48,655 bases of DNA from Patescibacteria group bacterium (GTDB lineage: Bacteria; Patescibacteriota; Minisyncoccia; UBA6257; HR35). The stretch lies in the NCBI GenBank assembly GCA_040290225.1, contig PSMS01000001.1, positions 1 through 48,655 on the forward strand. Direction: 5' to 3'. The notes beneath the pieces are model-generated. The model was not told where the DNA came from. It was given only the letters and a program-made list of their open reading frames with translations, and searched no databases. Numbering within the stretch: position 1 is the first letter of the stretch; each line of letters opens with the position of its first letter. Of the stretch, positions 4,022-38,425 are shown one piece after another. A program made the translations under genes and the position numbers.

Positions 4022-4133
4022 GCTAATTAATAAAATTAATCTTAATAAAAAATTAGTACTAATTTTTTCTTAAAAATTTATTTTCGAACCTTAAAGTAAA
4101 ATAAATTATAACTCAAAAAAGAAAAATATCAAA

Positions 4134-4844
4134 ATGAAAAATTTGGGACAAAATTTCTTAAAAAATAAGCATTTTTTAAAGAAAATTGCTCAAGCTTTAG
4201 AAATTAATGAAAATGATACCATTGTAGAAATTGGAGGTGGTCATGGAGAGTTAAGTCAATTTTTAACCAAAGCAAAAAATTTAATAATTTTAGAATTAGA
4301 TCGGGATTTATTTTATCATTTAAAAGAAAAATTTAAAAATTTTAATAATATTAAAGTTATCAATGAAGACTTTTTGAAATTTGATTTAAGTGTTTTTAAA
4401 AATAATTACAAACTTGTTGGTAATATACCTTACTCGATTACTGGAAAAATTTTTAGAAAGGTTTTAAAAAGAGAAAATTTTCCAAAATTGTTAGTTTTTA
4501 CTCTTCAAAAAGAGGTTGGTTATAAATTTTTAGAGAAAGAAAAAAATAATTTTTGGAATACTTGGATAAAAATTTGGGGAGAAGTAAAAAATTTAGGAAT
4601 AATTAAAAAAAACAATTTTTATCCAGTTCCCAAGGTTGATTCAATTATTATAAAAATCAAATTTTTCGAAAAACCAAAAATTAAAGATGAAGAAAATTTT
4701 GCTAAGTTTTTAAAATTCATTTTTCGAGAACCTAATAAAAAATTAAAAAACAAAATAGATAAAGAATTAGGTGAATTAAAAGAAAAAAGAATTTTTGAGT
4801 TAAGTTTTGAAGAAATTATCAATTTATGGGGAAAATTAAAATAA
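4134..4844 (+). CDS. rsmA: 16S rRNA (adenine1518/1519-N6)-dimethyltransferase RsmA/KsgA
   Basis: LGQNFL, VEIGGGHGELSQ SAM motif and GNIPYSITG. Confidence 0.9.
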   Translation: MKNLGQNFLKNKHFLKKIAQALEINENDTIVEIGGGHGELSQFLTKAKNLIILELDRDLFYHLKEKFKNFNNIKVINEDFLKFDLSVFKNNYKLVGNIPYSITGKIFRKVLKRENFPKLLVFTLQKEVGYKFLEKEKNNFWNTWIKIWGEVKNLGIIKKNNFYPVPKVDSIIIKIKFFEKPKIKDEENFAKFLKFIFREPNKKLKNKIDKELGELKEKRIFELSFEEIINLWGKLK

Positions 4845-8122: not shown

Positions 8123-10972
8123 TTAACCTTTTATGACTCCTATTGGAACCAATTTAACTATTTTTTTAGCAATACCAATTTGATGAACAACTTCGACAAC
8201 TTCACTAACATCTTTATAAGCAACTGGAGCTTCTTCCGCTAATCCTGACATTGAACCCGCAGCCACCGAAATTCCTCTTGCCTCTAATTCTTTTTTCAAT
8301 TCACTTCCTTTTATTTTCTTTTTAGCTTCTGTTCTTGACATCATTCTTCCAGCACCATGGGGCGAAGAACCAAAACTAATTTCCATAGCTTTTTCTTGTC
8401 CAATTAAAACATAACTTGAAGTTCCCATTGATCCAGGAATTAATGTTGGTTGACCAATTTCTTTATATCTTGAAACTAATTCAGGATGATTTTTAGGAAA
8501 ACTTCTTGTTGCTCCTTTTCGATGAACTAATAATTTTTTCTTATCATATTCTTCAATTTTAACAATATTATGAGCAACATCATAAATTTGTCTCAATTCA
8601 ATATCTCTGCCAAAAACTTTTTTAAAAGCTTTTCTAATTTCATAAACAATAAGTTGTCTATTGGCAAAAGCAAAATTAGCTGCAGCTTTCATTGCCTCAA
8701 AATAATCTTGACCTTCAGGAGAATTAAAATCAAAATAAGCCAATTCCCGATCAACCAAATCAACACCTTTTCTGTCTAAATATCTTAAGGCTTCTCGAAT
8801 ATAATCAGTTGCCACCTGATGACCTAAACCACGAGAACCACAATGAATTAAAACACAAACTTTACCTTTTTCTAAATCCAATTTTTTAGCAATTTCTTCA
8901 TCAAAAATTTCTTGAACTCTTTGAATTTCAACAAAATGATTACCAGCACCAATTGTTCCTAATTGATCTCTTCCTCTATCTTTGGCATTTTTTGAAACTT
9001 TATCTGGATTAGCTCCTTCTAATTTTCCATTTGATTCAGTTGCTTCAATATCTTCTTTTGTTGCGTAACCAATCTCAAAAAGCCACTTTGCTCCTTCGCT
9101 TAAAACTTTATTCATTTCATCATTATTCAATTTCCAAAATCCTCCTTCACCTACTCCTGAAGGAACTTGTTTATAAATTTCTTCTGTTAATTTAGGAATT
9201 TTATCTTTAATCTCATCATAAAAGAATGGAGAAACTAATAATCGAACACCACAATTAGAAACAACAAAATTATCAGCAATAAAATTATGATCTTTGTCAT
9301 TTAAGCTTAAATCATAAACATAACCTTGATAATTTTCTTTTTCAATTTTTTCTATTTCATCAATAATAAAGCCTTCATTACCAAAAGAATATTTTTTTAC
9401 AAACTCATCAAATTTCAAAGAATTTTTCATAATTTTGGACTGAGCATAAATTTCCCATATCGATTTTTCACTCAATTCAGGCTGGTAATTTTTCAATAGA
9501 ACTTTTGCTAGAGCATTTTGGCTATAAAAAATTTTCGATTTCAATCTTAGGTTTTCTATTTCTTTCTTTTTATATTTAAGATAAGCCAAGGCCAAATTAG
9601 CCAATTTTCTTTTTTCTTGATGATACTCAAAATTAATTAAATTTAAAAATCTCTCTAAATTATTTAAATTCAGCTTTATTTGAAAGTTCAAACTTATTGT
9701 TTTATCTTCATCTTCAGAATTTTTAAAAATTTTTATTTTTGAAACTTCTATTTCAAATTCTTTTAATAAACTTTTTATTTCTTGAAAAAATTTTATTGCC
9801 TCTTTTAATTTTGTTTTATCAATCTTGAGTCTTAAAGTTACTAAACCGCTTTTGTTTTTATTATGAATTCTAATCGAGTTTAATTTTGCACCAAAAAATG
9901 AAGCTAAAAATAGTCTTTTTTGCCATAAAGGAGAGAATTTTAAAAATTTAAGTAAAGAAATTGATTTTTGATTTTTATTTTCTAAAGGATAACCAAGTAC
10001 AACTAAAAGAATTAAAAAAGGAAAACAAAAAACTCTTAAATAATTATTTTTAAGAATACTTTTAATTCCAATTTTTTCTAAATCTTCTTTTATTAACTTC
10101 AAATTTTCTTTTTCTCCCCAAATTGTTAAATTCGATATTTTTTTATTTTTATTTAAAACAATATTACCGTTGGCAAGAGTATAACCAAAAATTTTAATAA
10201 GATAAGAAAATTCTTCTGAATCAATATATAATGGCAAAAGATGTATTTTTTTTAAAAATTCAATTAGGTGAAAAATTGTATTTTCTTTATCATTCAATCC
10301 CAATTGTTTTACTTTTTCGATAAATTCCTTTTCATCGATTATTTTTATATGTTTTGGTTTTTCATATTTTATCCCTTGAAATGGATAAATAACAACTTTT
10401 TCTCCAATCAAAAGATTTTTTGCCTCTTTCATACCATTAATCGTTAAAACCGGATGATCTTCTGTCAGTTTTAGGGTATAGCCAAGTTTGGTGGTAATTT
10501 TCAACAAATAATTATTTTCTTTTCTTTTTAAAAACAACATAATTTTTGAAATTTTTAATTTTTTTCTCTTTAAAGAAATTGAAATAACTTTTTTATTTTC
10601 CAAAATATCTTTAATTTCAATATAAGTTCCGAATGGTAAACTAATTTTACTTTCTGGCGGAAGACAATTAATATCGTAACCGACAGCACCAGGAGAAATT
10701 ATCCCATCTTTAATATCAATCGCCATAATTCCGCCAACTAACGCACCATATCCTTCATGGGCATCAGGCATTGCTAAGGCATATTTATAAACTCCAGGCA
10801 GGGTTGTCATATTAACCAATTGCCACAAACTTCTGTCTTTGAACAATTCATCCAACATCTTTTCAGAAGCAAAAATACGAGCAGGAACTCTCATATCTTC
10901 TCGAAAACTTTTGGGAATTTCCCAAATATAATCTGAAATTTTTATTAAATCTTCTTTTTTAGGTATTTTCAT
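8123..10972 (-). CDS. rtcB: RNA-splicing ligase RtcB interrupted by an in-frame intein (precursor 949 aa; spliced product 478 aa)
   Basis: Exteins: AMPDAHEGYG...GAVGYDIN | CGVRLL...GAGNHFVE...HCGSRGLGHQ...PGSMGTSSY...SPHGAGR. The intervening 471 aa are unrelated to RtcB and carry intein blocks. Confidence 0.92.
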   Translation of the reverse strand: MKIPKKEDLIKISDYIWEIPKSFREDMRVPARIFASEKMLDELFKDRSLWQLVNMTTLPGVYKYALAMPDAHEGYGALVGGIMAIDIKDGIISPGAVGYDINCLPPESKISLPFGTYIEIKDILENKKVISISLKRKKLKISKIMLFLKRKENNYLLKITTKLGYTLKLTEDHPVLTINGMKEAKNLLIGEKVVIYPFQGIKYEKPKHIKIIDEKEFIEKVKQLGLNDKENTIFHLIEFLKKIHLLPLYIDSEEFSYLIKIFGYTLANGNIVLNKNKKISNLTIWGEKENLKLIKEDLEKIGIKSILKNNYLRVFCFPFLILLVVLGYPLENKNQKSISLLKFLKFSPLWQKRLFLASFFGAKLNSIRIHNKNKSGLVTLRLKIDKTKLKEAIKFFQEIKSLLKEFEIEVSKIKIFKNSEDEDKTISLNFQIKLNLNNLERFLNLINFEYHQEKRKLANLALAYLKYKKKEIENLRLKSKIFYSQNALAKVLLKNYQPELSEKSIWEIYAQSKIMKNSLKFDEFVKKYSFGNEGFIIDEIEKIEKENYQGYVYDLSLNDKDHNFIADNFVVSNCGVRLLVSPFFYDEIKDKIPKLTEEIYKQVPSGVGEGGFWKLNNDEMNKVLSEGAKWLFEIGYATKEDIEATESNGKLEGANPDKVSKNAKDRGRDQLGTIGAGNHFVEIQRVQEIFDEEIAKKLDLEKGKVCVLIHCGSRGLGHQVATDYIREALRYLDRKGVDLVDRELAYFDFNSPEGQDYFEAMKAAANFAFANRQLIVYEIRKAFKKVFGRDIELRQIYDVAHNIVKIEEYDKKKLLVHRKGATRSFPKNHPELVSRYKEIGQPTLIPGSMGTSSYVLIGQEKAMEISFGSSPHGAGRMMSRTEAKKKIKGSELKKELEARGISVAAGSMSGLAEEAPVAYKDVSEVVEVVHQIGIAKKIVKLVPIGVIKG
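9254..10666 (-). mobile_element. Intein (471 aa) with a degenerate LAGLIDADG-type homing-endonuclease domain, inserted in the RtcB DIN/CGVR active-site motif
   Basis: Starts with Cys (CLPPESKISL; TGT at 10666-10664). Block B is LKLTEDHPVLT. LAGLIDADG-like segments are LIKIFGYTLANGNI and LFLASFFGAKLNS. Blocks F/G are YVYDLSLNDKDHNFIADNFVVSN, followed by the +1 Cys (TGT at 9253-9251). Confidence 0.88.
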
Positions 10973-10988
10973 TCTAAATAATATTATA

Positions 10989-11639
10989 CTATTTTTGGAG
11001 TTCTTCTTGAATGCTTTTTTCTAAATCTTCAAATCTTTTAATCTCTATTAATTTTCCATTAACAAAAAAACTTGGAGTTCCTCTAAGCCCTAAGGCTAAA
11101 GATTCGTTTCTTTGTTCTAAAATTTTTTTAGTTGTTGTTTCAGAATTAAAATCTTCTTCAAATTTTTTAATATCTAAATCAAGTTCTTTAGCGTAACTAA
11201 TAAACCTTTCTTTGGGATTTTTGTCGTTTTTCCAATCATCTTGTCTTTCAAAAAGCATATCATGCATTTGCCAAAATTTATTTTGATTACCAGCAGCTTC
11301 AGCTGCTTTAGCTGCTAAAATGGCGTTAGAATGAATTTCAATTAAAGGAAAATGTCTATAAACAAATAAAATTTCATCATTATATTTTTTCTTTAAATCT
11401 TTAATAATTGGGAAAAATGCTCGACAAGCAGGACATTGAAAATCGCTGTATTCAATAACAATTACTTTAGCCTTTGTTTTATCTCCTAAAAACCAATCAT
11501 TTTCTCTTAAGCTAGTAGTTATTTCTTTTTTAGAAGAAAAACGAAAACTATTTAAAAAACCTGTGAAAATAAGAGAAAAAACGACTATCCCAACAATAAC
11601 AAAAAGCAAAATGGTGTTTTGATTTTTCTTTTTTGACAT
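10989..11639 (-). CDS. Membrane-anchored DsbA-like thiol:disulfide oxidoreductase (thioredoxin fold)
   Basis: N-terminal TM (ILLFVIVGIVVFSLIFTGF), CPAC active site (DFQCPACRAF) and GTPSFFVNG. Confidence 0.8.
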   Translation of the reverse strand: MSKKKNQNTILLFVIVGIVVFSLIFTGFLNSFRFSSKKEITTSLRENDWFLGDKTKAKVIVIEYSDFQCPACRAFFPIIKDLKKKYNDEILFVYRHFPLIEIHSNAILAAKAAEAAGNQNKFWQMHDMLFERQDDWKNDKNPKERFISYAKELDLDIKKFEEDFNSETTTKKILEQRNESLALGLRGTPSFFVNGKLIEIKRFEDLEKSIQEELQK

Positions 11640-19800: not shown

Positions 19801-20051
19801 TTATAATATCTTGCTTCTTCTTCACTGTAACGTGGTTCTCCAATTTCGTAACCCAAAAATTCTAATTTTAATTCTTTTTCTGAATAATCGTAAATAGGGA
19901 AAAATTCCTCAAAAACTCTTTTAAGTCCTATTTTTAAAAAATCATCAAAAGACTTTTTAATATCCTCCAATAAATAAGGAGGTTCTAAAAAAGAATATTT
20001 TGAAAAATTTTTAAAATTAATCATTAAAGGAGGAAACAAGCCCCTTGTCAA
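16797..20051 (-). CDS. rpoB: DNA-directed RNA polymerase subunit beta (the track start is TTG; the ATG at 20024 is an alternative start)
   Basis: GDIPIMTERGSFIINGNERVIV, the rifampicin-region-like segment SQLVDQTSPLSEI, NRHGNKGV and GGQRIGEMEMWALEAHGA. Confidence 0.96.
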   Translation of the reverse strand: MTRGLFPPLMINFKNFSKYSFLEPPYLLEDIKKSFDDFLKIGLKRVFEEFFPIYDYSEKELKLEFLGYEIGEPRYSEEEARYYKVNYSAPLKVNLKLINLVTKEEKIQKIYFGDIPIMTERGSFIINGNERVIVNQLLRSPGIYFSYLLYGDKKKFGAKLIPKQGAWLEFQVELLNVLQVRIDRRKKFPVTVLLKAFGFENNEEIYNTFKDLETPENPIITLTLKKDSTENREEALLEIHRKMKPTEPNNYDNAVFYFENTFLNPSRYNLSPVGRYHLNRRLNRDSNSLVLEKEDLIAIVQEILRLQSDPLTTADDMDSLFNRRIRNVHELLEDQLRIALSRLKRDIQDRMTAVDKNEQLLPSQIVYSRKFINTILEFFNISRLSQLVDQTSPLSEIEIKRRITTSGPGGVSKERAGLEVRDVHPSHYGRICPIHTPHEGQSIGLTLHKSLYAKLNEYGFLITPYFKVKNRKITDEIVWLTYDQELKEVIATKTVRINEKGEILDDYVDARIKGEPGIAKAEDITLIEVSPFQIFSLSTSLIPFGNHDDANRLQMGSNMQKQAVPLIKPDIPLVMTGLEAKVAKESGRITVSEVNGRVVEVDADHITIETEDKKRVIYKLRKFDMTSKYTCYNEKPRVKLGQKVKKGDVLTDGPAIKDGYLALGQNLLVGFLPWYGYNFEDAIIISERLLKDDIFTSIYIEDFMVDVVDTKLGPETTTNDIPGVREEKLANLDIDGIVRIGTYVKAGDILVGKITPKKAEELTPEEKLLKTIFGEKVEEFKDTSLNLEPGKEGRVIGVKILERSKGEISEIGVIKRIFVRIAKLRKIQVGDKLANRHGNKGVISLILKEEDMPFLPDGRRLDIILNPLGIISRMNVGQILELLLGTAANNLGYHAIVPPFSGPTPEEIAEELKKAGLPEDGKTILCDGLTGEPFKEKVLVGYMTIIKLVHMVEDKFHARSVGPYSLITQQPLGGRARFGGQRIGEMEMWALEAHGATENIQEVLTIKSDDIKGRMIAYENIVKGGEVNYISFPNAFLVLINELKGLGLNVEIHYKEKKEEKPPTLEEKLVEVPLKPEEAQNESN

Positions 20052-20098
20052 ATATTTTAGTTTCTAAAATATTGTCATTTAAATTTTAATCTTTAAGC

Positions 20099-20128
20099 AT
20101 TATAACACACTTTTTTATTTTTTGTCAA
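20099..20128 (-). promoter_or_regulatory. Sigma70-type promoter candidate for rpoBC: TTGACA-18 nt-TATAAT with an extended -10 TG
   Basis: The reverse strand reads TTGACAaaaaataaaaaagtgTGtTATAAT. It lies between tRNA-Ser and the rpoB start, with the -10 about 45-70 nt upstream of the candidate starts. Confidence 0.5.
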
Positions 20129-20148
20129 CAATTTTTTTACTATTAAGG

Positions 20149-20233
20149 CGGAGGGGGTGGGACTCGAACCCACAAGGCCACATGGGCCACCGGTTTTCAA
20201 GACCGGCGCATTAGCCAATTCTGCCACCCCTCC
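20149..20233 (-). tRNA. tRNA-Ser (anticodon UGA), long variable arm
   Basis: The reverse complement GGAGGGGTGGCAGAATTGGCTAATGCGCCGGTCTTGAAAACCGGTGGCCCATGTGGCCTTGTGGGTTCGAGTCCCACCCCCTCCG folds as a cloverleaf. The anticodon loop is CT-TGA-AA. No CCA is encoded. Confidence 0.9.
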
Positions 20234-20235
20234 AT

Positions 20236-20307
20236 CGCCCCCAACCGGATTCGAACCGGTATTTCTGCCCTGAGAAGGCAGTGTCCTAACCATTAGACGA
20301 TGGGGGC
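20236..20307 (-). tRNA. tRNA-Glu (anticodon CUC)
   Basis: The reverse complement is GCCCCCATCGTCTAATGGTTAGGACACTGCCTTCTCAGGGCAGAAATACCGGTTCGAATCCGGTTGGGGGCG. The anticodon loop is TT-CTC-AG. Confidence 0.88.
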
Positions 20308-20310
20308 TTT

Positions 20311-20394
20311 TGCCCCGGGAGGGACTCGAACCCTCACAGCCAGATGGCTACTGGTCCCTAAAACCAGCGCGTCTTCCAATTCCGCCACCGGGGC
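20311..20394 (-). tRNA. tRNA-Leu (anticodon UAG), long variable arm
   Basis: The reverse complement is GCCCCGGTGGCGGAATTGGAAGACGCGCTGGTTTTAGGGACCAGTAGCCATCTGGCTGTGAGGGTTCGAGTCCCTCCCGGGGCA. The anticodon loop is TT-TAG-GG. Confidence 0.9.
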
Positions 20395-20399
20395 AAATT

Positions 20400-20648
20400 T
20401 TACTTAAAAATATTTCTAATCAACAAAGGTATAGTCAAGGAAAGAAAAACCAAAAGAATTCCTATTATTAAAGGTAAAAATCTTGAATGAACTTCTTTTG
20501 CCTCTCCTTTTATATATTTTATACCAAGCCAGATAATTAAACCAACTAAAAAAAATAAAATTAACTTAAAAGCTAAACTAAATACGTTTGACAAAAGATT
20601 TTCAAAGTCAGTAATAAGAATGCCTTGTCCTTGACCTTGTTGTTTCAT
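20400..20648 (-). CDS. Small 2-TM protein: minimal TM-loop-TM core of the pilin-like array (array member 6; no signal peptide, no Cys pair)
   Basis: FKLILFFLVGLIIWLGIKYI - KGEAKEVHSR - FLPLIIGILLVFLSLTIPLLI. The stop is 5 nt from tRNA-Leu. Confidence 0.6.
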   Translation of the reverse strand: MKQQGQGQGILITDFENLLSNVFSLAFKLILFFLVGLIIWLGIKYIKGEAKEVHSRFLPLIIGILLVFLSLTIPLLIRNIFK

Positions 20649-20689
20649 AAAAATATTATAAACTTCTTAACTTATAAAGAAAAGTTCAA

Positions 20690-21358
20690 TTATTTTAACA
20701 ATTGTTTTGAACTTCTAAAGAAAAGTTCAATTAATTTAACAATGGTAAAGGATAAAATAGCAACAACAACTCCAATAATTATATAAAGAATATTTTTATG
20801 AAGTTCTTTTGATTTTTCTGGATAATATATATAATTGTAACCTGTCCAAATTAGAAAAAAAACAGCTAAAAACAAAGCTAACCAATAAACAGCTTTTAAA
20901 ATTTGGGAAATTAGATAAAATAAACAAATTTTCCAAGCATCTTGAGGAAGTTCTGTTGTTATTAAAGATGACTTAATTGTAACTCCTCCGCAATTTATTG
21001 AAGTTGGTGGTTTAATTGTTGGTAATTGTTGAGCAAAAACATAATTAATTAAAAAAATTCCTTGCAAACTAACTTTTCCTTTGGTTATTATCTTTTCTAT
21101 AAAAACAATTAAAGAAAATGAAAGTAAAGCAATTACAAATCCAACAATAGCCCAAATTATTCTTTCATGTGTTTTTTTAGCTTCTTCTGGTTTCGAAGCA
21201 TATAAAATCCCTGCATAAATTAACATAAAAGTAGCAAATATCATAGAAAACCACATAGAAAATTTTAAAGCAAGTGTAACAAAACCCAAAATACATTCCC
21301 AAAAATTATCCACACATAAAATTGGAGGTAAAGGAGAAAAACTTGTAGCTAAACCCAT
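20690..21358 (-). CDS. Fusion of two pilin-like modules in one ORF (array member 5)
   Basis: Module A: CVDNFWEC, TM, ASKPEEAKKTHE, TM. The linker holds a relic signal-peptide-like segment, IFLINYVFAQQ. Module B: CGG...WKIC, TM, YYPEKSKELHK, TM. Confidence 0.65.
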   Translation of the reverse strand: MGLATSFSPLPPILCVDNFWECILGFVTLALKFSMWFSMIFATFMLIYAGILYASKPEEAKKTHERIIWAIVGFVIALLSFSLIVFIEKIITKGKVSLQGIFLINYVFAQQLPTIKPPTSINCGGVTIKSSLITTELPQDAWKICLFYLISQILKAVYWLALFLAVFFLIWTGYNYIYYPEKSKELHKNILYIIIGVVVAILSFTIVKLIELFFRSSKQLLK

Positions 21359-21371
21359 TTATTTTTTGTTT

Positions 21372-21752
21372 TTAGAATTGTCCTCTTCTAATAACACCTT
21401 CAAGAAATAGAATTATTGCCCAAGAAAGCAAAACAACTACAGCGCCAACAGCAGCATAAATTAATTTATTTTTAATTTTTTTTATCTTTTCAGGATCACC
21501 TCCGTGAGTAGCAAAACTAAAACCAGCTGAAGCTAAGTGATAAGCTACCCAAACCATCCCTGCAACTATTACAAATCTAAGAAAAATTGTTGCTAATCGA
21601 GCAAAACATTGACCTACAGTATCTCCTGGCTCACAAAATCTAAATAAAGGAATTTGAAAGTTTATTGGATTGGGAACTTCTGATTGTGAAAGCGACAAAT
21701 AAAAAGGAGAAAGTAATAATAAGACTAAAAGAAATATTGAAAATGTTTTCAT
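21372..21752 (-). CDS. Small exported protein with TrbC/VirB2-pilin-like layout (array member 4)
   Basis: Signal peptide MKTFSIFLLVLLLLSPFYLSLSQS, Cys pair CEPGDTVGQC, TM, loop THGGDPEKIKKIKNK, TM (LIYAAVGAVVVLLSWAIILFL). Confidence 0.65.
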   Translation of the reverse strand: MKTFSIFLLVLLLLSPFYLSLSQSEVPNPINFQIPLFRFCEPGDTVGQCFARLATIFLRFVIVAGMVWVAYHLASAGFSFATHGGDPEKIKKIKNKLIYAAVGAVVVLLSWAIILFLEGVIRRGQF

Positions 21753-21831
21753 TAATTAAATAAATATTTTAATTCGACCTTTTTATTTATTTTAAAAAAT
21801 TTTTTATATTTTTTCAAAAAATTGTTAATAA

Positions 21832-22233
21832 TTATGGACCGCCGATAATTGCTCTAATAAATGTAAAAATACCTGAAATTATTAGTAAAATTACATAACC
21901 TAAAATAGCTTCTTTAATATATCGCCAACCAACATCTCGAAAATCTGGTTTTAACCAAATTAAAAGAAAATAAAATCCTCCAATTATTATTAAAATCGTC
22001 AAAATAATTGGACTTATATCTAATATAAATTTCCAGATAGTTGCTATTAATTCAAGCAACGGAATGAAAGCACAAGAATCATCTTTAGGAGCAGTACCAA
22101 ATATTCCAGGAGGACAAACGCTAATTGTTGTCTTTGTCCAAGTCACTTTAACCTCACCAGGTGTTATTGTAGCTCCAAAAGCAAAATTAAATATTAATAA
22201 GAAAAATAAAACAAAAAAAATTATTTTTCTCAT
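21832..22233 (-). CDS. Small exported protein, pilin-like layout (array member 3)
   Basis: Signal peptide ending in FAFGA, Cys pair CPPGIFGTAPKDDSC, TM, loop KPDFRDVGWRY, TM. ATGA overlap with member 2. Confidence 0.6.
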   Translation of the reverse strand: MRKIIFFVLFFLLIFNFAFGATITPGEVKVTWTKTTISVCPPGIFGTAPKDDSCAFIPLLELIATIWKFILDISPIILTILIIIGGFYFLLIWLKPDFRDVGWRYIKEAILGYVILLIISGIFTFIRAIIGGP

Positions 22234-22625
22234 TTACCAAAAATTATCCTTTCTATCTGCGCCCTTATAAGATCTCCTAATAAAACAATAACTAAACCAA
22301 TTGGTGCCCAAATTAAAATTTTCCATGCTGTTGAAATTTGTTTAAGTCCAAAAAATGGTGTAGAAATTAAATAAATAGCTGCAGCTATAAAAGAAATAAC
22401 AAGTAAAATAATAGCTAAACTTTTTAGAAGTTTTAAAACATCAAAAATGCATCTTATTATCTTGTCAAGTGGACTATCCGCTCCTTCGCCGCATTTTAAT
22501 GCTTGGTAAATTGGAGAAGTAAAATAACCAATAACTTGATAAAAAGGATCGGAATCGTTTGTTTGCTGGGCTAAAACGAATTGAATTATTATAAAAATTG
22601 TTATAAATAAAAAAATTTTTTTCAT
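22230..22625 (-). CDS. Small exported protein, pilin-like layout (array member 2)
   Basis: Signal peptide ending in FVLAQQ, Cys pair CGEGADSPLDKIIRC, TM (LAIILLVISFIAAAIYLI), loop, TM (ILIWAPIGLVIVLLG). Confidence 0.6.
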   Translation of the reverse strand: MKKIFLFITIFIIIQFVLAQQTNDSDPFYQVIGYFTSPIYQALKCGEGADSPLDKIIRCIFDVLKLLKSLAIILLVISFIAAAIYLISTPFFGLKQISTAWKILIWAPIGLVIVLLGDLIRAQIERIIFGK

Positions 22626-22638
22626 TTAATTTTATATT

Positions 22639-23052
22639 TTAATTTTGCGGATATCTTAATTTCGGTGAAAATATATTTAAAACTGCTAAAAAAATAGCTG
22701 CTGAAGAAACAACTAATATAAAACCAATAATAGAAGTTTTTATCATATTCTTTCCTCTTTGGGCCAAATTTGGAAAAGGACCACCAAACATCCACAAAAA
22801 AGCACCAATAACTGAAATTATTAAAGCTGCCCAAAAGCTGATAAAAATTAAAAATTTCATAAATTCAGGAATAGAATTTAAAAGATCTTGAACAGTGCAT
22901 GGATCGTTTTGGCATTTTATAAATCCTCCAGCTAAACTTGGTCCAGATGATGTTTGACCTCCTCCTCCACCTGGCCCTGGTTCAACAGCAGCATAAGATA
23001 AAAGAAAGTTTGCAAGACTAAATAAAAACAATAAAAAAATTATTTTTTTCAT
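22639..23052 (-). CDS. Small exported protein, pilin-like layout (array member 1)
   Basis: Signal peptide ending in LSYAA, Gly-rich stretch PGPGGGGGQTSSGPS, Cys pair CQNDPC, TM, loop GGPFPNLAQRGKN, TM. ATGA overlap with the upstream gene. Confidence 0.6.
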   Translation of the reverse strand: MKKIIFLLFLFSLANFLLSYAAVEPGPGGGGGQTSSGPSLAGGFIKCQNDPCTVQDLLNSIPEFMKFLIFISFWAALIISVIGAFLWMFGGPFPNLAQRGKNMIKTSIIGFILVVSSAAIFLAVLNIFSPKLRYPQN

Positions 23053-24233
23053 CTTTCAATTAAATCTAATTTTAATCTAAAAATTTCATTTTTTGCTTCT
23101 TCAGGATTATTTTCCCAAATATCAAAAACTTTATCAAAATCTTGATATTGTGGTTGTAAAATAATGCTTTCATAAGTAGAACCGTATTTAGCTAAATCTA
23201 GTATTCTGATTTTTTCTTGAGATAAATTAGGTAAATTTTTATTAGGAATTAAATCATAATCTTCTGCTAATTGAAGATATTTTTTTTCAATTAAAGTTTT
23301 TAAAAATTCTAAAGCATATTTTTTATTTTTACTTTCATTAGGAATTACAAAATAATAAACCTTAACAAAGTTTTTAGCTTTTGGAGGAAAAGTATTAATT
23401 GGACTTGGATAAATTGAAAAATTTAATCTCGGATTAAGATCGGAAATTTCTTTTTTGTCTCTATAAAAACCAATATAAAAAACTAATTTTCCTTCGGCAA
23501 ACATATTAATATCTTGATTTTCTGGTTTAAAAGAAAAAAATTCATTTTGGGGGTTAGTATAAGAAAAGAATGTTTCTAAAATATCAGATGGAAACTTTTC
23601 TAAAATAGAATTCATTACTAAAACAATTTCCTTTTTATTTTTTACTTTACTACTTCCTAAACCAATCGCGTAATAATTTAAATAGCCTTTAGAATTAAAT
23701 TCTTTAATGAAGTTATTCAATTCTTCTAAAGTTTGTGGAGGTGATTTTCCTAAAAAATCTAAAATTTCTTTATTAGCAAAAAGAACTAAAGTATCTATAA
23801 ACAAAGGATAACCAAATTTTTCTTTTTCATCAACAAAAATTAAACCAGAAATTTTATAATCATTAGGTATTTGATAGAGAAAGTTATTATTTTTAGAAAC
23901 AAAAATATTATCAGCAAAAATAATATCAGGAACATTTTTTGAAGCTAAAGAATAAATAAAATCTTCGTTAATTTTATCTAAACTTTTTTCTTCAATATTA
24001 ATTTTTAAACAATAATATCTTTCAATTGGTTCAATAATTGAACTTAATTTTTCTTTTTCAAAAGGAAACCAAATAGTTAAATTAGCTCCAAAGCAGTGAG
24101 GAGGTTTTTTAGGTTTAGGAAAAAGAACATTTTTAAAAATAAAAAAGAAAAGGAATAAAAAAACTAAACTACCAATAATTAATTGAAATTTAACATCTGT
24201 TTTTATTTTTTCCTTTAGTTCTTCTAAATTCAT
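23049..24233 (-). CDS. Membrane-anchored protein resembling a family-1 extracellular solute-binding protein
   Basis: N-terminal TM (FQLIIGSLVFLFLFFFIF), then LTIWFPFE, VPDIIFADN, LFANKEILDFLGKSPPQTLEEL and GKLVFYIGF, which recall the MalE-type SBP fold. No permease or ATPase gene is adjacent. Confidence 0.45.
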   Translation of the reverse strand: MNLEELKEKIKTDVKFQLIIGSLVFLFLFFFIFKNVLFPKPKKPPHCFGANLTIWFPFEKEKLSSIIEPIERYYCLKINIEEKSLDKINEDFIYSLASKNVPDIIFADNIFVSKNNNFLYQIPNDYKISGLIFVDEKEKFGYPLFIDTLVLFANKEILDFLGKSPPQTLEELNNFIKEFNSKGYLNYYAIGLGSSKVKNKKEIVLVMNSILEKFPSDILETFFSYTNPQNEFFSFKPENQDINMFAEGKLVFYIGFYRDKKEISDLNPRLNFSIYPSPINTFPPKAKNFVKVYYFVIPNESKNKKYALEFLKTLIEKKYLQLAEDYDLIPNKNLPNLSQEKIRILDLAKYGSTYESIILQPQYQDFDKVFDIWENNPEEAKNEIFRLKLDLIER

Positions 24234-24751
24234 TTTTCAAAAATTAACAAAAAATAAGCACCCCAATCTCTATCTTCTATTATTTTAAAACCAATATTTT
24301 TACAAATTTCTTCAATTTTTTCTTGAGGATGAACATTTTGACCTGAAAAAAGAAAATTTGATTCTTTTGGTTCATAGATTATTAAAAGACCGTTATTTTT
24401 TAAAACTCTATAAGCTTCTTTTAATATTAATTCAGGGTTTTCAGATTGATATAAAACTTGAGAAATAAAAACAAAATCTACACTATTATTTTCTAAGCCG
24501 CTATTTTTTTCTAAATCCTGTTTTAAAAATCTTATATTTTTTATTTTGAAATTATTAGCGAATTCTTTAGCTTCATTTAAAACATCTTCTTGGATATCAA
24601 TAGCATAAATTAAACCTTGGGGTCCAACAATATTAGCCAAAAGAACAGAAAAATAACCAGAACCACAACCAAAGTCCGCTCCATTCATTCCTGAATGAAG
24701 ATAACCTTTTTCTTTTAAAAAATTAATAATTTCTCCTGGTCGAGTAAACAT
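24230..24751 (-). CDS. Class I SAM-dependent methyltransferase (substrate unknown)
   Basis: ADFGCGSGYFSVLLA (motif I), IYAIDIQ, VDFVFISQVL and LKNNGLLIIYEP. Confidence 0.8.
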   Translation of the reverse strand: MFTRPGEIINFLKEKGYLHSGMNGADFGCGSGYFSVLLANIVGPQGLIYAIDIQEDVLNEAKEFANNFKIKNIRFLKQDLEKNSGLENNSVDFVFISQVLYQSENPELILKEAYRVLKNNGLLIIYEPKESNFLFSGQNVHPQEKIEEICKNIGFKIIEDRDWGAYFLLIFEK

Positions 24752-27073
24752 TTAAAATAAAAACACATTTTTAATTTCATTAACACTTTCTAATTTTTTA
24801 GGAGCGTTAGTTCTTTTAATCAATGGAATATTTTTTAAATTAACTCTTTTGATTTCTCCATCACTAATTACAATCTCTTTTTCTTCTTCAATATCTTTAA
24901 CAAAAATTAAATTTCCATATTTTTCCTTTTCAAAAACAAAAATTCCTTTACCTCCTCTGTTTTGAATTTTGATTTCTTTTAGATCTATTAATTTAACAAA
25001 ACCCTTATTAAAAATAAATAACATTTTATTTCCTTTTTTAGAACCCGCAAAAATAATCTCTCCTTTCATCCCTCTAACTCCTCGAGCATTTCTTTTTTGT
25101 AAAGGCAAATTATCTTTAAAAATTAAAATATTTCCTTCCTGACTAATTAACCAAATTTCTTCGCCTCCTTTTAAATTAAATCCTGCAACAACTTCATCAT
25201 TTGTTTCTAATTTAATAGCTTGAACTCCTGTTTTTCTATTAGAAATAACATCTTCACAATTTATTTTTTTTATCAAGCCCTTTTTTGTTACTAAAATAAG
25301 ATTTTTAAACTTAACTGGAAATATATTAATTATTCTTTCATCTTTTTCTAAACTAATCGGCGTTTCTAAATATTTATTTTTAGAATTTAAGTAAAAATAA
25401 ACAGGTAAAGTATAAATTTTGCCCTTTTGAGAAATTGCTAAAATTTTTTCTTTGGTCGAGATTAAAAACAAATTCTTAGGAAACTCATCTTTATTTAATA
25501 ATTTATTAACATCTAATTTTTCTGGATCAATTAAAGAAACCTGGTTTTTCGAATTAACCCAAAAGAAAACAGTTTTTTCTATAATCTCTTCTTTTTTTGT
25601 TTCAATTTCTTCTTCAATTATTTTAGTTAATCTTTCAGAGGGATATTTTTTGATAATTTCATCAGCTTCTTGAATAATTATTTCTTCAATTTTTTTAGGA
25701 TTTTTCAAAATCATTTCTAATTCTTGGATTAAACTTTTTCTTTGTTTTAATTCTTCTAAAATTTTATGTCTTTCCATTTGAGTTAAGGTTCGAAGGGGCA
25801 TTTCCAAAATAGCATCAGCCTGCTTTTCTGTTAATTTAAATTTCTTCATCAAATTTTCTAAAGCTTCTTTTCTATCTTTTGACTTTTTAATTGTTTCAAT
25901 GACTCTATCTAAATTTTCTAAAGCTTTATCAAAACCTTCTAACAAATGAACTCTTTCTTTATTTTTTTCTAAATCAAATTTTGTTTTTCTTTTAATAACT
26001 TCTTTTCGATGTTCTATCCAAGAAACAAGAATTTCTTTCAAACTAAAAATTTTTGGTTGGATCCCGTTTTCTAAAGCAATAGAATTAAAATAATAAATTT
26101 TTTGTAAAGAAGTTAAACGATAAAGATCTTCTTTTAATTTTTCAATATTAGAATTTGGCTTTATTTCAATAACTACTCTAATACCTTCTTTGTTTGATTC
26201 ATCTCTTACATCTTTAATTTCTTCAATAACTTTTTCTAAAGCTAAATTAGCTATTTCTTTTACTAAATCAGCTTTATTAACTTGCCAAGGTATTGATTTA
26301 ATAACTAAATATTCTTTTCCTCTTTTTGTTTCTTCTAAATCAATCTCTCCTCTGACAATTATTCCTCCCCTACCATCTTCATAAGCTTTTTCTAATCTTT
26401 TTCCTCCATAAACAAGACCACCTGTAGGAAAATCGGGACCTTTAATAATTTTTAACAATTCTTTATTAGAAATTTTTGGGTTTTTAATAATTTCTTTAAC
26501 AGCCAATAAAACTTCTGTTAAATTATGAGGGGGAATATTAGTAGCCATTCCTACAGCAATCCCTACAGAACCATTAATAATTAAATTAGGAATTTTTGCT
26601 GGTAAAACAACTGGTTCTTTATGGGTATTATCATAATTTGGTCTGAAATCAACAGTTTCTTTATCAATATCAGCTAACATTTCTTCAGCAAATTTTGAAA
26701 GTTTAGCCTCAGTATAACGATAAGCTGCTGGCGGATCACCATCAACTGAACCGAAATTTCCTTGACCAATAACCAAAGGATATCTTAAAGAAAAATCTTG
26801 AGCCATTCTAACCAAAGCTTCATAAACAGCCATATCACCGTGAGGATGGTAGCGAGCTATTGTGTTTCCCACAATATTAGCACATTTAGTAAATTTTTCA
26901 TTAGACCATAAACCCAATTCTTTCATTACATATAAAATTCTTCTTTGAACTGGTTTTAAACCATCACGAACATCAGGTAGAGCCCGAGAAACAATAACAG
27001 AAACAGCATAATCAAGATAAGATCTTTTAAGTTCTTCTGAAATTTCTTGAACAATTATTTTTAAATTTTTCAT
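24752..27073 (-). CDS. gyrA: DNA gyrase subunit A
   Basis: [30 protein letters not shown] (catalytic Tyr) and the GyrA-box-like QNRGGKG at aa 704-710. 773 aa. Confidence 0.93.
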
Positions 27074-27276
27074 TATCTACCCAAAAAATCAGCTAAGGAA
27101 TTAAAAATCAAAGAAAGTCCTAATTGGAAATTTTTAAAAACAAAAGCTGTCACTTGGGCTATTGGAGCTGGTCCAGTATGAATACCATAAATTAAACTTC
27201 CACCACTAAGCCACCAAAGAAAAATTAAAAATGACATTAGCAAAGTTGCATAAATAAGAGGTTTTCTTTTTGTCAT
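27073..27276 (-). CDS. Small 2-TM membrane protein, unknown function
   Basis: Hydrophobic segments [17 protein letters not shown] and AQVTAFVF...LGLSLIF. TAATG overlap with the gyrA start. Confidence 0.4.
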
Positions 27277-27277
27277 T

Positions 27278-27784
27278 TTATTGAATGATTAATAATTGGT
27301 TTTCCGACCTTTTGATATTATTTATTTTAAACTTTGAATTTTTATTTTTTTGAAACTTCGGAAGATTAAGATCAAATAAAGAAATAATAACTTTAGGATG
27401 GAAATGGTTTATAATTTTTTCGATTGTAATTTTTTCTCCAAGAAAAATAATATCTATCTCTTTAGTTAAATTTTTTATTTTTTTAAGAGTTTCTTCGCTT
27501 GGAAAGGATTTTAAATAATAAAGCCAATTTTCTTCAAATTTAAACAAAAATGAAATGAATTTGTCATCTTTAAAAGCATAAATAAATACATTATCAACAT
27601 TATACTCGCCTGGAAAGTTAAAAATTCTATCAATATTTTTGTTCCTTGAAAAATCTGTTAAAATATAAACATATCCCTCTTTTTCTCTAATGTGAGGGGG
27701 ATCAAAAACAAAATTAAGGTTGTTTATTTTAAAAACTATATTAGAACCTTCTTTAAAAATTTCCATTATTTTTAATTTTATCAT
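27278..27784 (-). CDS. Hypothetical protein, possibly a degenerate metallo-beta-lactamase-like fold without the HxHxDH motif
   Basis: Only a weak resemblance (FPGEYNVDNVFIYAF). No catalytic motif seen. Confidence 0.35.
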   Translation of the reverse strand: MIKLKIMEIFKEGSNIVFKINNLNFVFDPPHIREKEGYVYILTDFSRNKNIDRIFNFPGEYNVDNVFIYAFKDDKFISFLFKFEENWLYYLKSFPSEETLKKIKNLTKEIDIIFLGEKITIEKIINHFHPKVIISLFDLNLPKFQKNKNSKFKINNIKRSENQLLIIQ

Positions 27785-27796
27785 AAAATTAAACTA

Positions 27797-28876
27797 ATGA
27801 AAACAATGATCAATCAACAAAATAAAATAAAAATTAATAATGTAAAAAATTTAAATTTTAATACTGTCTACGAAGGAGTTGTTATTAATAAGAAAAAGGG
27901 AGAACTTTATGTTGATTTAAGTCCTTTTGGTATTGGCCGTCTTTTTGGTATGTACTATCTTCAATGCCAAGATATTGCTCAAAAAGTAAATGTTGGTGAT
28001 AAAATTGGTGTTCAAATTATTGGTTTAGATGATAGCTATGGTAATTTAAAAATTATTCTTAAAGATATAAGACAAATAGATAAGTGGCAAAGAATTTTAG
28101 AGTGTCAACAAAGCAAAAAAATTTTAGAACTTGAACCAAAAGAAGCTAACAGAGGAGGATTAATAATTGAATTAGAAGGAATTCAAGGGTTTTTGCCTGT
28201 TTCCCAATTAACGCCAGAAAATTATCCTCGGGTAATTAGTAATAATAAAGATCAAATTCTAGATCATTTAAAAAAATTAATTGGTAAAAAACTTCAAGTA
28301 AGAATTTGGATTGCTGATCCGGTAAAAAATAAATTAGTATTTTCTGAAAAATTAGCTAAACAAGAAATTTACGAAAAAATTTTATCTCAATTTCAGGTTG
28401 GACAAATAATTGAGGTAAAAGTTGTCGGTTATGGTCCTTTTGGTCTTTTTGTTAGATTTCACGAAAATCCAGCTATGGATGGTTTAATTCATCTTTCAGA
28501 AATACCAAACGAATTAGCTTCAGATTTACAAACTAATTTCCCCTTAGGTAAAGTAATAAAAGCAAAGTTAGTTCAATTAAAAATCGATAAAGTTAATTTT
28601 ACTCTTAAAGACTTAAGACCAGATCCTTGGTTATTTATTGAAGACTACTTCAAAGAAAATAATGTTACTAAAGGAATCTTGAAAGAAAAAAATAATATTT
28701 TTGGTGTGGTAGAAGTAAAGGTTGCTGATATTGGAGAAATAAATGGTTTTGTTTTTGAAGGAATAGAAAATTTAGAAATAGGGAAAGAATATGATTTCTT
28801 AATTGAAAAAATTAATCCGAAAGAGAGAAACCTTATTTTAAAACCAGTAGAAAATGCTCAAATCAGACAAAATTAA
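27797..28876 (+). CDS. rpsA: S1 RNA-binding-domain repeat protein (short ribosomal protein S1-like)
   Basis: Four S1-like units, e.g. YEGVVINKKKGELYVDLSPFGIGRL, GLIIELEGIQGFLPVSQL, VGQIIEVKVVGYGPFGLFVRF...GLIHLSEI and TKGILKEKNNIFGVVEV. Confidence 0.75.
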   Translation: MKTMINQQNKIKINNVKNLNFNTVYEGVVINKKKGELYVDLSPFGIGRLFGMYYLQCQDIAQKVNVGDKIGVQIIGLDDSYGNLKIILKDIRQIDKWQRILECQQSKKILELEPKEANRGGLIIELEGIQGFLPVSQLTPENYPRVISNNKDQILDHLKKLIGKKLQVRIWIADPVKNKLVFSEKLAKQEIYEKILSQFQVGQIIEVKVVGYGPFGLFVRFHENPAMDGLIHLSEIPNELASDLQTNFPLGKVIKAKLVQLKIDKVNFTLKDLRPDPWLFIEDYFKENNVTKGILKEKNNIFGVVEVKVADIGEINGFVFEGIENLEIGKEYDFLIEKINPKERNLILKPVENAQIRQN

Positions 28877-36776: not shown

Positions 36777-38027
36777 ATGATAGATCTAAAAGATTTAATT
36801 AATAATCCTCAAAAATATAAAGAAGCTTTAATTTTAAGAGGTTGGCAGGATACAAGCATTATTGATGAAATTTTAAATCTCAAAGAAAGAATTAATCAGT
36901 TGATTAAAAAAAGAGATGATCTTAGATTTTTTATCAACAAACATTCAGAAACAAAACCATCAGAAGAAATTATCAAATTAATAAGAGAAAAAAAAGAAGA
37001 ATTAAAAAACTTAGAAGATGAAATAGGAAATTTAGAAAGAGAATTAGAAGAAAAATTGGATTTAATTCCTAATGTTCCTGCTCCTGATGTTCCTAAAGGA
37101 AAAGACGAAAATGATAATGTTGTTTTAAAAGTAGTTGGTGAAATTTTTAATTTTAATTTTCAACCAAAAGATCATTTAGAATTGGGAAAAGAATTCGATT
37201 TAATTGATACTGAAAAAGCAGGTGAAATTGCTGGTTCAAGATTTTACTATCTTAAAAACGAGGCAGTTTTATTAGAAATAGCTTTAATTAAATTTGTTTA
37301 TGATACTCTTTTACCTTATGGATTTACTCCAATAATTCCTCCTTATTTTATAAAAGAGAAATATTATCGAGGTATGGGAAGAATAACAGGAACTGATCGA
37401 GATGAAAGATATTATTTAGAAAAAGACGATTTATTTTTAATTGGAAGTGCTGAACATACTATCGGCCCTTATCATGCTAATGAAATTTTAGACGAAGATG
37501 AATTACCCAAAAGATATTTAGGTTTTTCTCCTTGTTTTCGAAGGGAAGCTGGAAGTTATGGAAAGGATGTTAAAGGAATTTTAAGAACTCATCAATTTGA
37601 AAAAGTAGAAATGTTTAGCTTCACTTTACCTGAAAAATCAGAAGAAGAACACCAATTTTTATTATCTATGGAAGAAAAAATTCTTCAAGCCCTAGAACTT
37701 CCTTATCGAGTTGTTTTTATTTGTACTGGTGATATGGGAAGAACAGATTACAAACAATATGATATCGAAGTTTGGCTTCCTGGTCAAAATAGATATCAGG
37801 AAACTCATTCTTGTTCTAATACAACTGATTATCAGGCTCGAGGAATAAATGCTCGGTTTCGAAGAAAAAATGGAAAAGTTGAGTATTTGCATATGCTTAA
37901 CGCAACCGCTTTAGCAATAGGTAGAGCGATTGTTGCTATTTTAGAAAATTATCAAAGAGAAAAATATATTGAAATACCTAAAGTTCTTGTTCCTTATTTA
38001 GGTTTTGATAGAATAGAAAAAAGATGA
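36777..38027 (+). CDS. serS: Seryl-tRNA synthetase
   Basis: N-terminal coiled coil. Class II motifs GSRFYYLKNE, FRREAGSYGKDVKGILRTHQFEKVE and NATALAIGRAIVAILEN. Confidence 0.94.
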   Translation: MIDLKDLINNPQKYKEALILRGWQDTSIIDEILNLKERINQLIKKRDDLRFFINKHSETKPSEEIIKLIREKKEELKNLEDEIGNLERELEEKLDLIPNVPAPDVPKGKDENDNVVLKVVGEIFNFNFQPKDHLELGKEFDLIDTEKAGEIAGSRFYYLKNEAVLLEIALIKFVYDTLLPYGFTPIIPPYFIKEKYYRGMGRITGTDRDERYYLEKDDLFLIGSAEHTIGPYHANEILDEDELPKRYLGFSPCFRREAGSYGKDVKGILRTHQFEKVEMFSFTLPEKSEEEHQFLLSMEEKILQALELPYRVVFICTGDMGRTDYKQYDIEVWLPGQNRYQETHSCSNTTDYQARGINARFRRKNGKVEYLHMLNATALAIGRAIVAILENYQREKYIEIPKVLVPYLGFDRIEKR

Positions 38028-38425
38028 AAAAATTTGAATTTTTATCTCATACGGCTGATCAGAAATTTAAGATTTATGGAAAAAATTTAAAAGAATTGAT
38101 TATTAATTCGCTTTTAGCTTTAAAAAGTTTTTTCAAACCAAAATTAACAAAAAGTAAAATAGAAAAAGAAATAAAAATAAAAAACGAAAAAACTGAAATT
38201 CTTTTAATAGATTTTCTTTCAGAAGTTTTAGCCCAAACTTATATTGAAAAAGCAATTTTTACTGATTTTCAAGAAAAAAACTTGAATTCAAAATTAATTG
38301 AAGGAAAAATTTTAGGTTTTTATTTTATCAAACTTACTAAAGACATTAAAGCAATTACTTATCATCAAGCTAAAATTGAAAAAATTAATAATTTATTTAC
38401 TTTCGAATTTATCGTCGATATTTAA
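38024..38425 (+). CDS. Archease (RtcB activator family)
   Basis: FEFLSHTADQKFKIYGKNLKEL, KAITYHQAKIE, and the C-terminal FIVDI. These match the archease hallmarks (HTAD, KAITYH, xDI end). ATGA overlap with serS. Confidence 0.85.
   Translation: MKKFEFLSHTADQKFKIYGKNLKELIINSLLALKSFFKPKLTKSKIEKEIKIKNEKTEILLIDFLSEVLAQTYIEKAIFTDFQEKNLNSKLIEGKILGFYFIKLTKDIKAITYHQAKIEKINNLFTFEFIVDI

Follow-up and report, generated by a model that had tools for sequence, protein, structure and literature searches.

A conserved seven-module array of T4SS_pilin-family genes downstream of gyrA in a Patescibacteria group bacterium

A 48,655-bp contig of a fragmented Patescibacteria metagenome-assembled genome (MAG), analysed here as a whole and referred to as the window, carries on its minus strand an array of six tightly packed genes (20400–23052). 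As judged from the open reading frame (ORF) list and a module profile, the array encodes seven modules of a single plan: a short ectodomain containing a single Cys pair, followed by two transmembrane (TM) helices joined through a basic loop. The locus belongs to an already described family of Patescibacteria pilins and adds no new kind of system. It probably supplies VirB2-like pilins to a type IV secretion system (T4SS) encoded elsewhere, which would use them for a heteromeric filament or conduit in contact with a host. All six proteins have T4SS_pilin (PF18895) as their best Pfam match; their genes recur one-to-one, in the same order and with the same sizes, in more than 15 related loci; and other members of the family lie beside VirB4, VirB3 and VirB6 genes.

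The array had been singled out in an earlier reading of the DNA and its ORFs alone (the sequence-only reading), as the window's best candidate for an undescribed system in an episymbiotic bacterium with a small genome. The guess about the organism agrees with the origin of the contig in a Patescibacteria MAG. The claim of novelty does not hold: a Pfam model exists, and arrays of divergent pilins, including ones not adjacent to virB4, have been published (PMC12102498, PMC12857230).

Seven modules of one plan

The array begins with g1 (22639–23052; minus strand, as for every gene of the array), the 137-residue product of which comprises a signal peptide, a Gly-rich linker, the pair CQNDPC and a TM-loop-TM unit. 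The product of g2 (22230–22625; 131 residues) has a signal peptide ending in VLA↓QQ, a Cys pair spaced 13 residues and a TM-loop-TM unit, and that of g3 (21832–22233; 133 residues), whose start overlaps the stop of g2 by 4 nt, bears the conserved ectodomain motif VTWT..CPPGIFG. These three pilin-like genes were recognised from their ORFs, cysteines and hydropathy together with PF18895, and the likewise pilin-like g4 (21372–21752; 126 residues) from its ORF and a PF18895 match above cut-off. The next gene, g5 (20690–21358; 222 residues; PF18895 and NF045849), is a fusion of two modules. Module a (21032–21358; residues 1–109), delimited by its cysteines, hydropathy and an AlphaFold2 model, consists of the pair CVDNFWEC and a TM-loop-TM unit without a signal peptide, and the linker behind it ends in a vestigial signal-peptide c-region, FLINYVFA↓QQ. 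In module b (20690–21031; residues 110–222; PF18895, NF045849 and AlphaFold2), the pair CGG...WKIC stands on either side of a small beta-hairpin, and a TM-loop-TM unit comes next. The array closes with g6 (20400–20648; 82 residues; PF18895 above cut-off), a minimal module reduced to a bare hairpin with neither signal peptide nor Cys pair. Successive genes are spaced by 13 nt (g1–g2), −4 nt (g2–g3), 79 nt (g3–g4), 13 nt (g4–g5) and 41 nt (g5–g6).

The cysteine counts are strict, with exactly two in each of g1–g4, four in g5 (one pair per module) and none in g6, such that every module but g6 has exactly one conserved pair. The N-termini of g1–g4, judged by eye from the sequence, are Sec-type signal peptides, in which MKK or MRK is followed by a hydrophobic run and an A-x-A-like site, and the inter-helix loops, as read from the sequences, are rich in Lys and Arg. 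All seven modules, two of which the module profile detects as separate domains in g5, can be aligned with one another at 13–28% identity, with a conserved register in the turn and second helix; the paralogs diverge most in the ectodomain, whereas the second helix is conserved.

Hydropathy and AlphaFold2 indicate two long helices per module, with an N-terminal hydrophobic, signal-like segment in g1–g4. Mature g4 was modelled as a two-helix hairpin (helices 24–60 and 65–100; pLDDT 84.3) and g5 as two hairpins (pLDDT 77.6), module a having helices 19–55 and 57–92 ahead of a disordered linker (96–110), and module b having strands 120–129, a beta-hairpin between Cys123 and Cys145, and helices 141–178 and 180–221.

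The curated cut-offs are 26.6 bits for PF18895, 27.9 bits for the TrbC/VirB2 model PF04956 and 40 bits for NF045849 (Mbov_0395 family pilin-like conjugal transfer protein). The first is reached by g4 (35.6 bits), which is the best single-module match, by g5 (53.8 bits, over two stretches) and by g6 (26.8 bits), while g1–g3 are tied to the T4SS_pilin family through a profile of the seven modules and through their orthologs. NF045849 is passed by g5 (47.5 bits, two stretches), with g4 just under the cut-off at 37.3 bits and g2 at 10.9 bits. The module matches take in family motifs outside the TM segments, aligned in register: G-x-x-Y, a polar turn and K-x-I/L-x-x-x-I/V-G. At E ≤1e-3 the seven-module profile retrieved 32,185 representatives (clusters at 50% identity), some of which match both models strongly, T4SS_pilin at up to 302 bits and TrbC at up to 144.6 bits (P0030). 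The link of the window proteins to TrbC/VirB2 is, at the level of profile matches, a transitive one, made through relatives that match both Pfam models, and not a direct one.

Individual searches returned few records. A single-protein homology search with g4 recovered only g4 itself; in a “Patescibacteria group bacterium” MAG, g4 is entered as C4348_00105 and g1 as C4348_00120, and no database record was found for the exact sequence of g5. Searched against plasmids by tblastn, g6 gave no match, and the family member P0010 gave one weak match, to an NF045849-type gene on a Pontibacillus plasmid.

Type IV pilins were considered and rejected. Their hallmarks are a short basic leader ending in Gly, the motif F/M-T-L-I-E, a single N-terminal hydrophobic helix, a prepilin peptidase and PilB/PilC. 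The array proteins have ordinary Sec-type N-termini ending A↓Q and two C-terminal helices; none has a pilin_N-type Pfam match, and the window contains no PilB, PilC or PilD.

Much of this structure had been anticipated in the sequence-only reading. Its count of six packed genes and seven modules, with ATGA overlaps and gaps of 13–79 nt, agrees with the ORF coordinates, the spacing and the module profile, and its single Cys pair per module, absent from the last gene, with the cysteine counts. The two-helix hairpin it proposed was recovered by hydropathy and in the AlphaFold2 models of g4 and g5, and the TrbC/VirB2-type pilin layout is borne out by the PF18895 matches of all six proteins, by the score of g6 near the PF04956 cut-off and by g5 passing NF045849. 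Signal peptides are indeed missing from g6 and from the first half of g5, but the second half of g5 retains only a vestige (GIFLINYVFA↓QQ), leaving four full signal peptides and not five. The list of inter-helix loops was given out of gene order and omitted that of g2.

Orthologous loci and selection

Loci with the same array include those of bacterium HR35 (GCA_002898235.1), a Candidatus Paceibacterota MAG (JAVVGJ01) and a third-party annotation (TPA) Patescibacteria MAG (DAINRM01), as well as ENA and Logan contigs and at least 11 JGI metagenome contigs, one of which spans 509 kb; the metagenome scan for relatives used a narrow di-pilin alignment (A6). HR35 (GCA_002898235) was not found in the paper supplements searched. 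In relatives, the gene order ahead of the array is FtsH, S1, two small ORFs, gyrA, a methyltransferase gene and a solute-binding-protein (SBP)-like gene. The downstream flank is variable, with tRNAs and rpoBC in some relatives and FtsW and glycogen genes in others, and the conserved block is therefore gyrA, methyltransferase, SBP-like gene and array. Synteny of the array with its SBP-like neighbour, which the sequence-only reading had proposed to look for, was thus found, the SBP-like gene being the immediate upstream neighbour of the array in all long related loci, L027 among them.

Orthologs of g1 are present in all related loci, and those of g6 have 76–78 residues in all relatives. The two modules of g5 are likewise fused in every relative (216–238 residues), on which ground a gene-prediction artefact was rejected. 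In L027, with a gyrA of 66% identity, a single 245-residue protein (L027:8402–9139) combines g1 and g2, and the rest is unchanged. The six genes are real and not chance ORFs, because their Pfam E-values go down to 2e-14, more than 15 other loci preserve them gene for gene, and their dN/dS is 0.06–0.30.

The pilins evolve fast, being 29–58% identical to their relatives, against 72–76% for gyrA, rpoB and rpoC. This rate, together with the low identity of the paralogs and the concentration of their divergence in the ectodomain, speaks for a surface family that diversifies rapidly or varies antigenically, and whose ectodomains would be selected to evade or match hosts, as discussed for VirB2 in Bartonella and Anaplasma. 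Diversification has been raised as an idea for Patescibacteria pilin arrays (PMC12102498), and the sequence-only reading, which saw hypervariable exposed parts beside conserved cores, had leaned the same way. The orthologs tell against it. Each paralog keeps its own ectodomain motifs and Cys spacing, with one-to-one orthology and fixed order across the related loci, and the mean identity of orthologs in five genomes is 56% for ectodomains and 67% for hairpin helices, compared with the 13–28% found between paralogs. Gene-wide dN/dS, estimated from the three closest genomes at unsaturated dS (0.3–0.98), is 0.06–0.30 for the pilins and 0.06–0.10 for gyrA; by gene it is 0.07–0.13 for g2, 0.08–0.17 for g3, 0.26–0.30 for g4 and 0.06–0.07 for g6. 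The fastest-evolving paralog is g4 and the best conserved is g2, whose orthologs P0003–P0009 are 57–91% identical. No recent duplicates or gene-conversion tracts were seen among the array paralogs. On these sequence comparisons the array is a set of old, specialised paralogs under purifying selection and not a diversifying family; antigenic variation is largely refuted at the gene level by that selection and by the one-to-one orthology, and such a role is quite improbable.

Fusions, poly-pilins and known systems

When the representatives of the wider family are ranked by summed score, multi-module proteins fill the top of the list: the top-listed representatives are all multi-module, with 2–17 modules, and all 147 of those listed (excluding window proteins and single-module homology-search hits) have at least two. 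The poly-pilins P0029, P0030, P0032 and P0033 carry 6–17 tandem T4SS_pilin/TrbC modules in a single polypeptide, with 17 in P0029 (1,775 residues) and 11 in P0030; most modules of these two have the Cys pair, which P0032 mostly lacks. BLAST with the window modules revealed colinear g1-g2-g3 fusions (P0057, P0062, P0059 and P0112), a g3-like module standing third in P0057 and P0062, as well as g1-g2 fusions (P0100, P0111, P0139 and P0169) and about 25 g5a-g5b di-pilins among the representatives. A further fusion, of g1-g2 or g1-g2-g3 orthologs, lies at L024:26–814. Because the fusions recur in gene order, a Rosetta-stone argument can be made that the paralogs work together, and their colinearity hints at a fixed heteromeric assembly. 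No report of fused pilin modules or poly-pilins was found in the literature searched; the colinear fusions and the poly-pilins of up to 17 modules are new here, as modest findings.

The linker of g5 (window 21032–21080, residues 93–109) contains a motif, FVFA[QE], that is conserved in five genomes, and the same linker occurs in L001, L004, L010 and L011. Across the di-pilin subfamily the linker keeps [FL]-x-[FY]-A-[QED], which corresponds to the c-region of the former signal peptide, and in relatives this motif continues straight from the TM helix before it, so that it may act as an internal site for signal peptidase, at which the protein would be split in two.

The genomic company of other family members differs between loci. 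A distance of ~5.5 kb separates the pilins of L009 from PrgI, a TraC-like gene and VirB4, and those of L007 stand beside two TrbL_3 (VirB6-like) genes; the L008 array has no T4SS gene within 10 kb. A VirB4 protein search with the L009 fragment gave at least 8,000 matches, and the 120 listed are all from Microgenomates.

A published survey applied PF04956 and PF18895 to 3,026 Patescibacteria assemblies, and found VirB4 of the candidate phyla radiation (CPR) clade in 2,407 of them (~80%) and VirB2-like pilins in 1,948 VirB4-containing assemblies; the pilins were near virB4 in 1,135 of the 1,948 and away from it in ~40%, and 441 arrays of 2–11 pilin genes were recorded, with a mean identity of 25% (PMC12102498). 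The present array resembles these CPR arrays in its Pfam family, its phylum and the combination of a signal peptide, a variable N-terminal part and a helical hairpin, and both are sets of tandem divergent paralogs, of six genes and seven modules at 13–28% identity in the window. Named CPR arrays of the PF18895 kind are the six-pilin array of Ca. Southlakia epibionticum ML1, which is essential (PMC12857230), and the “Sec-secreted array” of Ca. Nanosynbacter lyticus TM7x. The Southlakia array lies inside a T4SS locus, whereas that of the window and its relatives belongs to a gyrA-methyltransferase-SBP operon, and no T4SS gene is found in the 10–28 kb around it. Unlike the known CPR arrays, it also has a conserved two-module fusion and one Cys pair in every module but g6.

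Beyond the phylum, the TrbC/VirB2 pilins of diderms (A. tumefaciens VirB2 and RP4 TrbC) have in common with the window proteins a small size, a signal peptide, two hydrophobic helices and a short basic loop; the window pilins differ in their monoderm host and in N-terminal extensions predicted to be braced by disulfides, and no sign of cyclisation or of a pilus was found for them. The Mbov_0395 and MMCAP2_0565 proteins of mycoplasma integrative and conjugative elements (ICEs) and Firmicutes plasmids are linked to the array by the NF045849 matches of g5 and g4. Genes of this type are single-copy and belong to mobile conjugative elements, in contrast to the chromosomal, vertically inherited seven-module array of the window, around which there is no relaxase or ICE context. 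The NF045849 match and the Pontibacillus plasmid match fit the monoderm MPF-FATA ancestry proposed for Patescibacteria T4SS. The T4SS of Bartonella and Anaplasma also have divergent virB2 copies side by side, discussed as host-range or immune-evasion variants; the window paralogs, by contrast, are ancient one-to-one orthologs under purifying selection and are fused colinearly elsewhere, which argues for joint rather than alternative use.

Genomic setting and proposed role

The flanks of the array are as described in the sequence-only reading and assigned by Pfam, with gyrA, a methyltransferase gene and the SBP-like gene on one side, and three tRNAs and rpoBC on the other. The SBP-like gene (23049–24233, minus strand) encodes a membrane-anchored protein with a weak MalE-like match (SBP_bac_8 33.2 bits, SBP_bac_1 26.3 bits), and its stop overlaps the start of g1 by 4 nt (ATGA). 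Upstream of it, at 24230–27784 on the minus strand, the S-adenosylmethionine (SAM) methyltransferase gene, gyrA and two ORFs of no assigned family follow one another with gaps of ≤13 nt. The two ORFs (27073–27784, minus strand; 168 residues, and 67 residues with one TM helix) have no Pfam or NCBIfam match, abut the 5′ side of gyrA at gaps of 0–1 nt and are conserved in all relatives. Intergenic distances remain ≤13 nt throughout from the 168-residue ORF (27784) to g3, and no terminator-like site was found in 20000–27900, so the array looks co-transcribed with gyrA, the methyltransferase gene and the SBP-like gene; these three, the two ORFs and g1–g3 probably form one transcription unit. In the 79-nt g3–g4 gap, a promoter-like site matching 10 of 12 consensus positions (21789–21817, minus strand) may be an internal promoter for g4–g6, although the promoter scan as a whole yielded 48 sites against a chance expectation of 39.7 ± 6.8 in this AT-rich DNA, and is thus not above chance. 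A tRNA-Leu/Glu/Ser trio (20147–20395, minus strand) begins 4 nt past the stop of g6 and may be read through from the pilin genes. Just upstream of rpoB, 20099–20128 (minus strand) matches the sigma-70-type promoter consensus at 12 of 12 positions and has a TG extension.

Elsewhere in the window, the Pfam content, scanned over every ORF of ≥100 residues and several smaller ones, is housekeeping only (NusA, KsgA, a P-type ATPase, RtcB with an intein, a DsbA-like protein, SHMT, rpoBC and gyrA/gyrB), with FtsH, ClpP, SerRS, cell-wall and polysaccharide genes and ribosomal proteins among the further genes. The DsbA-like thioredoxin-fold protein (10989–11639, minus strand; Thioredoxin_4 103.9 bits, DSBA 64.8 bits) is a candidate maker of the putative disulfides of the pilin ectodomains. 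The intein-interrupted RtcB RNA ligase (8123–10972, minus strand; 949 residues) has an archease gene at a distance (38024–38425, plus strand), and the neighbouring FtsH of HR35 (L001:1–3803) has intein and LAGLIDADG insertions that the window FtsH does not have. An M23-peptidase/LysM protein adjoins KsgA (window 3254–4844), with no virB4 there; VirB1-like proteins with M23-peptidase/LysM domains have been described, and KsgA is a frequent virB4 neighbour in Paceibacteria (PMC12102498).

Several results weigh against the proposal that the array supplies pilins to a T4SS. With regard to the family, g1–g3 remain under the PF18895 cut-off (22.2, 19.5 and 15.7 bits; E from 1.5e-4 for g1 to 1.6e-2), and no window protein reaches that of PF04956, the sole match being g6 (25.3 bits, E 1.8e-5, profile positions 31–94 of 98). 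Comparison by hhalign of alignments A2 and A1 with four annotated VirB2/TrbC sequences from Ti and other plasmids gave probabilities of 0.4–0.7% (E 0.08–0.17), a weak negative given the narrow, Agrobacterium-type VirB2 profile (Neff 1.8). A PDB sequence-profile search was empty, and a Foldseek search of PDB with the g4 model gave a best E of 1.5 and no pilin in the top 50, in a comparison for which the helical hairpin fold is not diagnostic. The profile searches against pilin families that the sequence-only reading had suggested were therefore passed for T4SS_pilin and NF045849, but not for TrbC or, by hhalign, VirB2. With regard to machinery, Pfam scans of the window found no VirB4, VirD4, VirB6, VirB3 or type IV pilus part, as that reading had noted, and a local VirB4 hidden Markov model found nothing there while scoring 857 bits on its positive control. 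No T4SS component lies within 10 kb of the array in ~14 long related loci. A pilus, moreover, has never been seen for any member of the T4SS_pilin family, and has only been called possible (PMC12857230).

A further proposal is that these are unrelated two-helix membrane proteins, or spurious ORFs, which resemble pilins through hydrophobicity. TM-helix profiles are prone to compositional matches, and three proteins under a Pfam cut-off, together with negative hhalign and Foldseek comparisons against bona fide pilins, are in keeping with this. However, the non-TM motifs specific to the family are matched in register, all seven modules can be aligned, two independent curated models are passed, and the genes are conserved under purifying selection and have relatives in T4SS loci. 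Spurious ORFs are refuted by that conservation and selection, and chance resemblance is the least probable of the explanations considered, very improbable indeed.

The missing machinery carries little weight, because the window is a single 48.6-kb contig of a fragmented MAG. The main alternative is a T4SS-independent envelope complex, in which the hairpins and the membrane-anchored SBP-like protein would form a surface or uptake structure, such as a nutrient-capture channel or anchor, of pilin ancestry but with no need of VirB4. The SBP-like gene overlaps g1 and stands ahead of the array in each of the long related loci, even at 66% gyrA identity, its protein evolves at a pilin-like rate (38–41% identity, against 72% for gyrA), and no ABC permease or ATPase for it is encoded anywhere in the contig. 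The array itself sits in a housekeeping operon behind gyrA and, in none of the loci examined from this clade, has virB4 within 10 kb, an observation that is new here and modest. Against this, other Patescibacteria arrays have no SBP neighbour and stand beside VirB4, VirB3 and VirB6, ~80% of Patescibacteria assemblies have VirB4, ~40% of the pilin-bearing ones keep their pilins apart from it, and synteny by itself is no proof of interaction. The SBP-like protein is a conserved neighbour whose functional link to the pilins is unproven, and an envelope complex of this kind is unlikely.

A more specific version, and a similarly doubtful one, is that the array of this Paceibacteria-like clade has become uncoupled from any T4SS and, with the SBP-like protein, builds its own heteromeric envelope structure of fixed stoichiometry, g5 perhaps being cut at VFA↓QQ. 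Fixed stoichiometry is suggested because the g1-g2-g3 and g5a-g5b fusions are colinear in other lineages. If true, the uncoupled array would amount to an apparatus derived from pilins that has gained a new partner and a new function.

According to the favoured reading, pilins for a T4SS encoded elsewhere, the products would insert into the cytoplasmic membrane, g1–g4 via Sec with cleavage of the signal peptide, and g5 and g6 via their short N-terminal tails. Each module would then be a membrane hairpin with both ends and the disulfide-braced N-terminal ectodomain outside and the Lys/Arg-rich loop in the cytoplasm. A VirB4-powered T4SS of monoderm (MPF-FATA-like) type, encoded elsewhere in the genome, would extract the modules from this membrane pool and build them into a surface filament or conduit touching the host of the presumably epibiotic bacterium. 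The seven modules would act jointly in this, as old specialised paralogs in a probably heteromeric structure and not as interchangeable variants. A pilus or conduit has been called an attractive but unproven idea for Patescibacteria pilins (PMC12857230); in Saccharibacteria, the T4SS has been said to have a completely unknown role (PMC11665869).

Few functions have been shown to be essential to Patescibacteria living as epibionts, and T4SS genes and VirB2-like pilin arrays are among them; the structure that the pilins build is not yet known in the field. The present locus offers a clean comparative case, with a one-to-one seven-module set under purifying selection, in a housekeeping operon apart from the machinery, and with fusions of its modules elsewhere. 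From this pattern it can be argued that the paralogs belong to a single heteromeric assembly rather than being alternative variants, which narrows the range of models for the Patescibacteria pilus or conduit. Concrete targets that emerge are the contacts among g1, g2 and g3, those between g5a and g5b, and a possible internal cleavage of the di-pilin.

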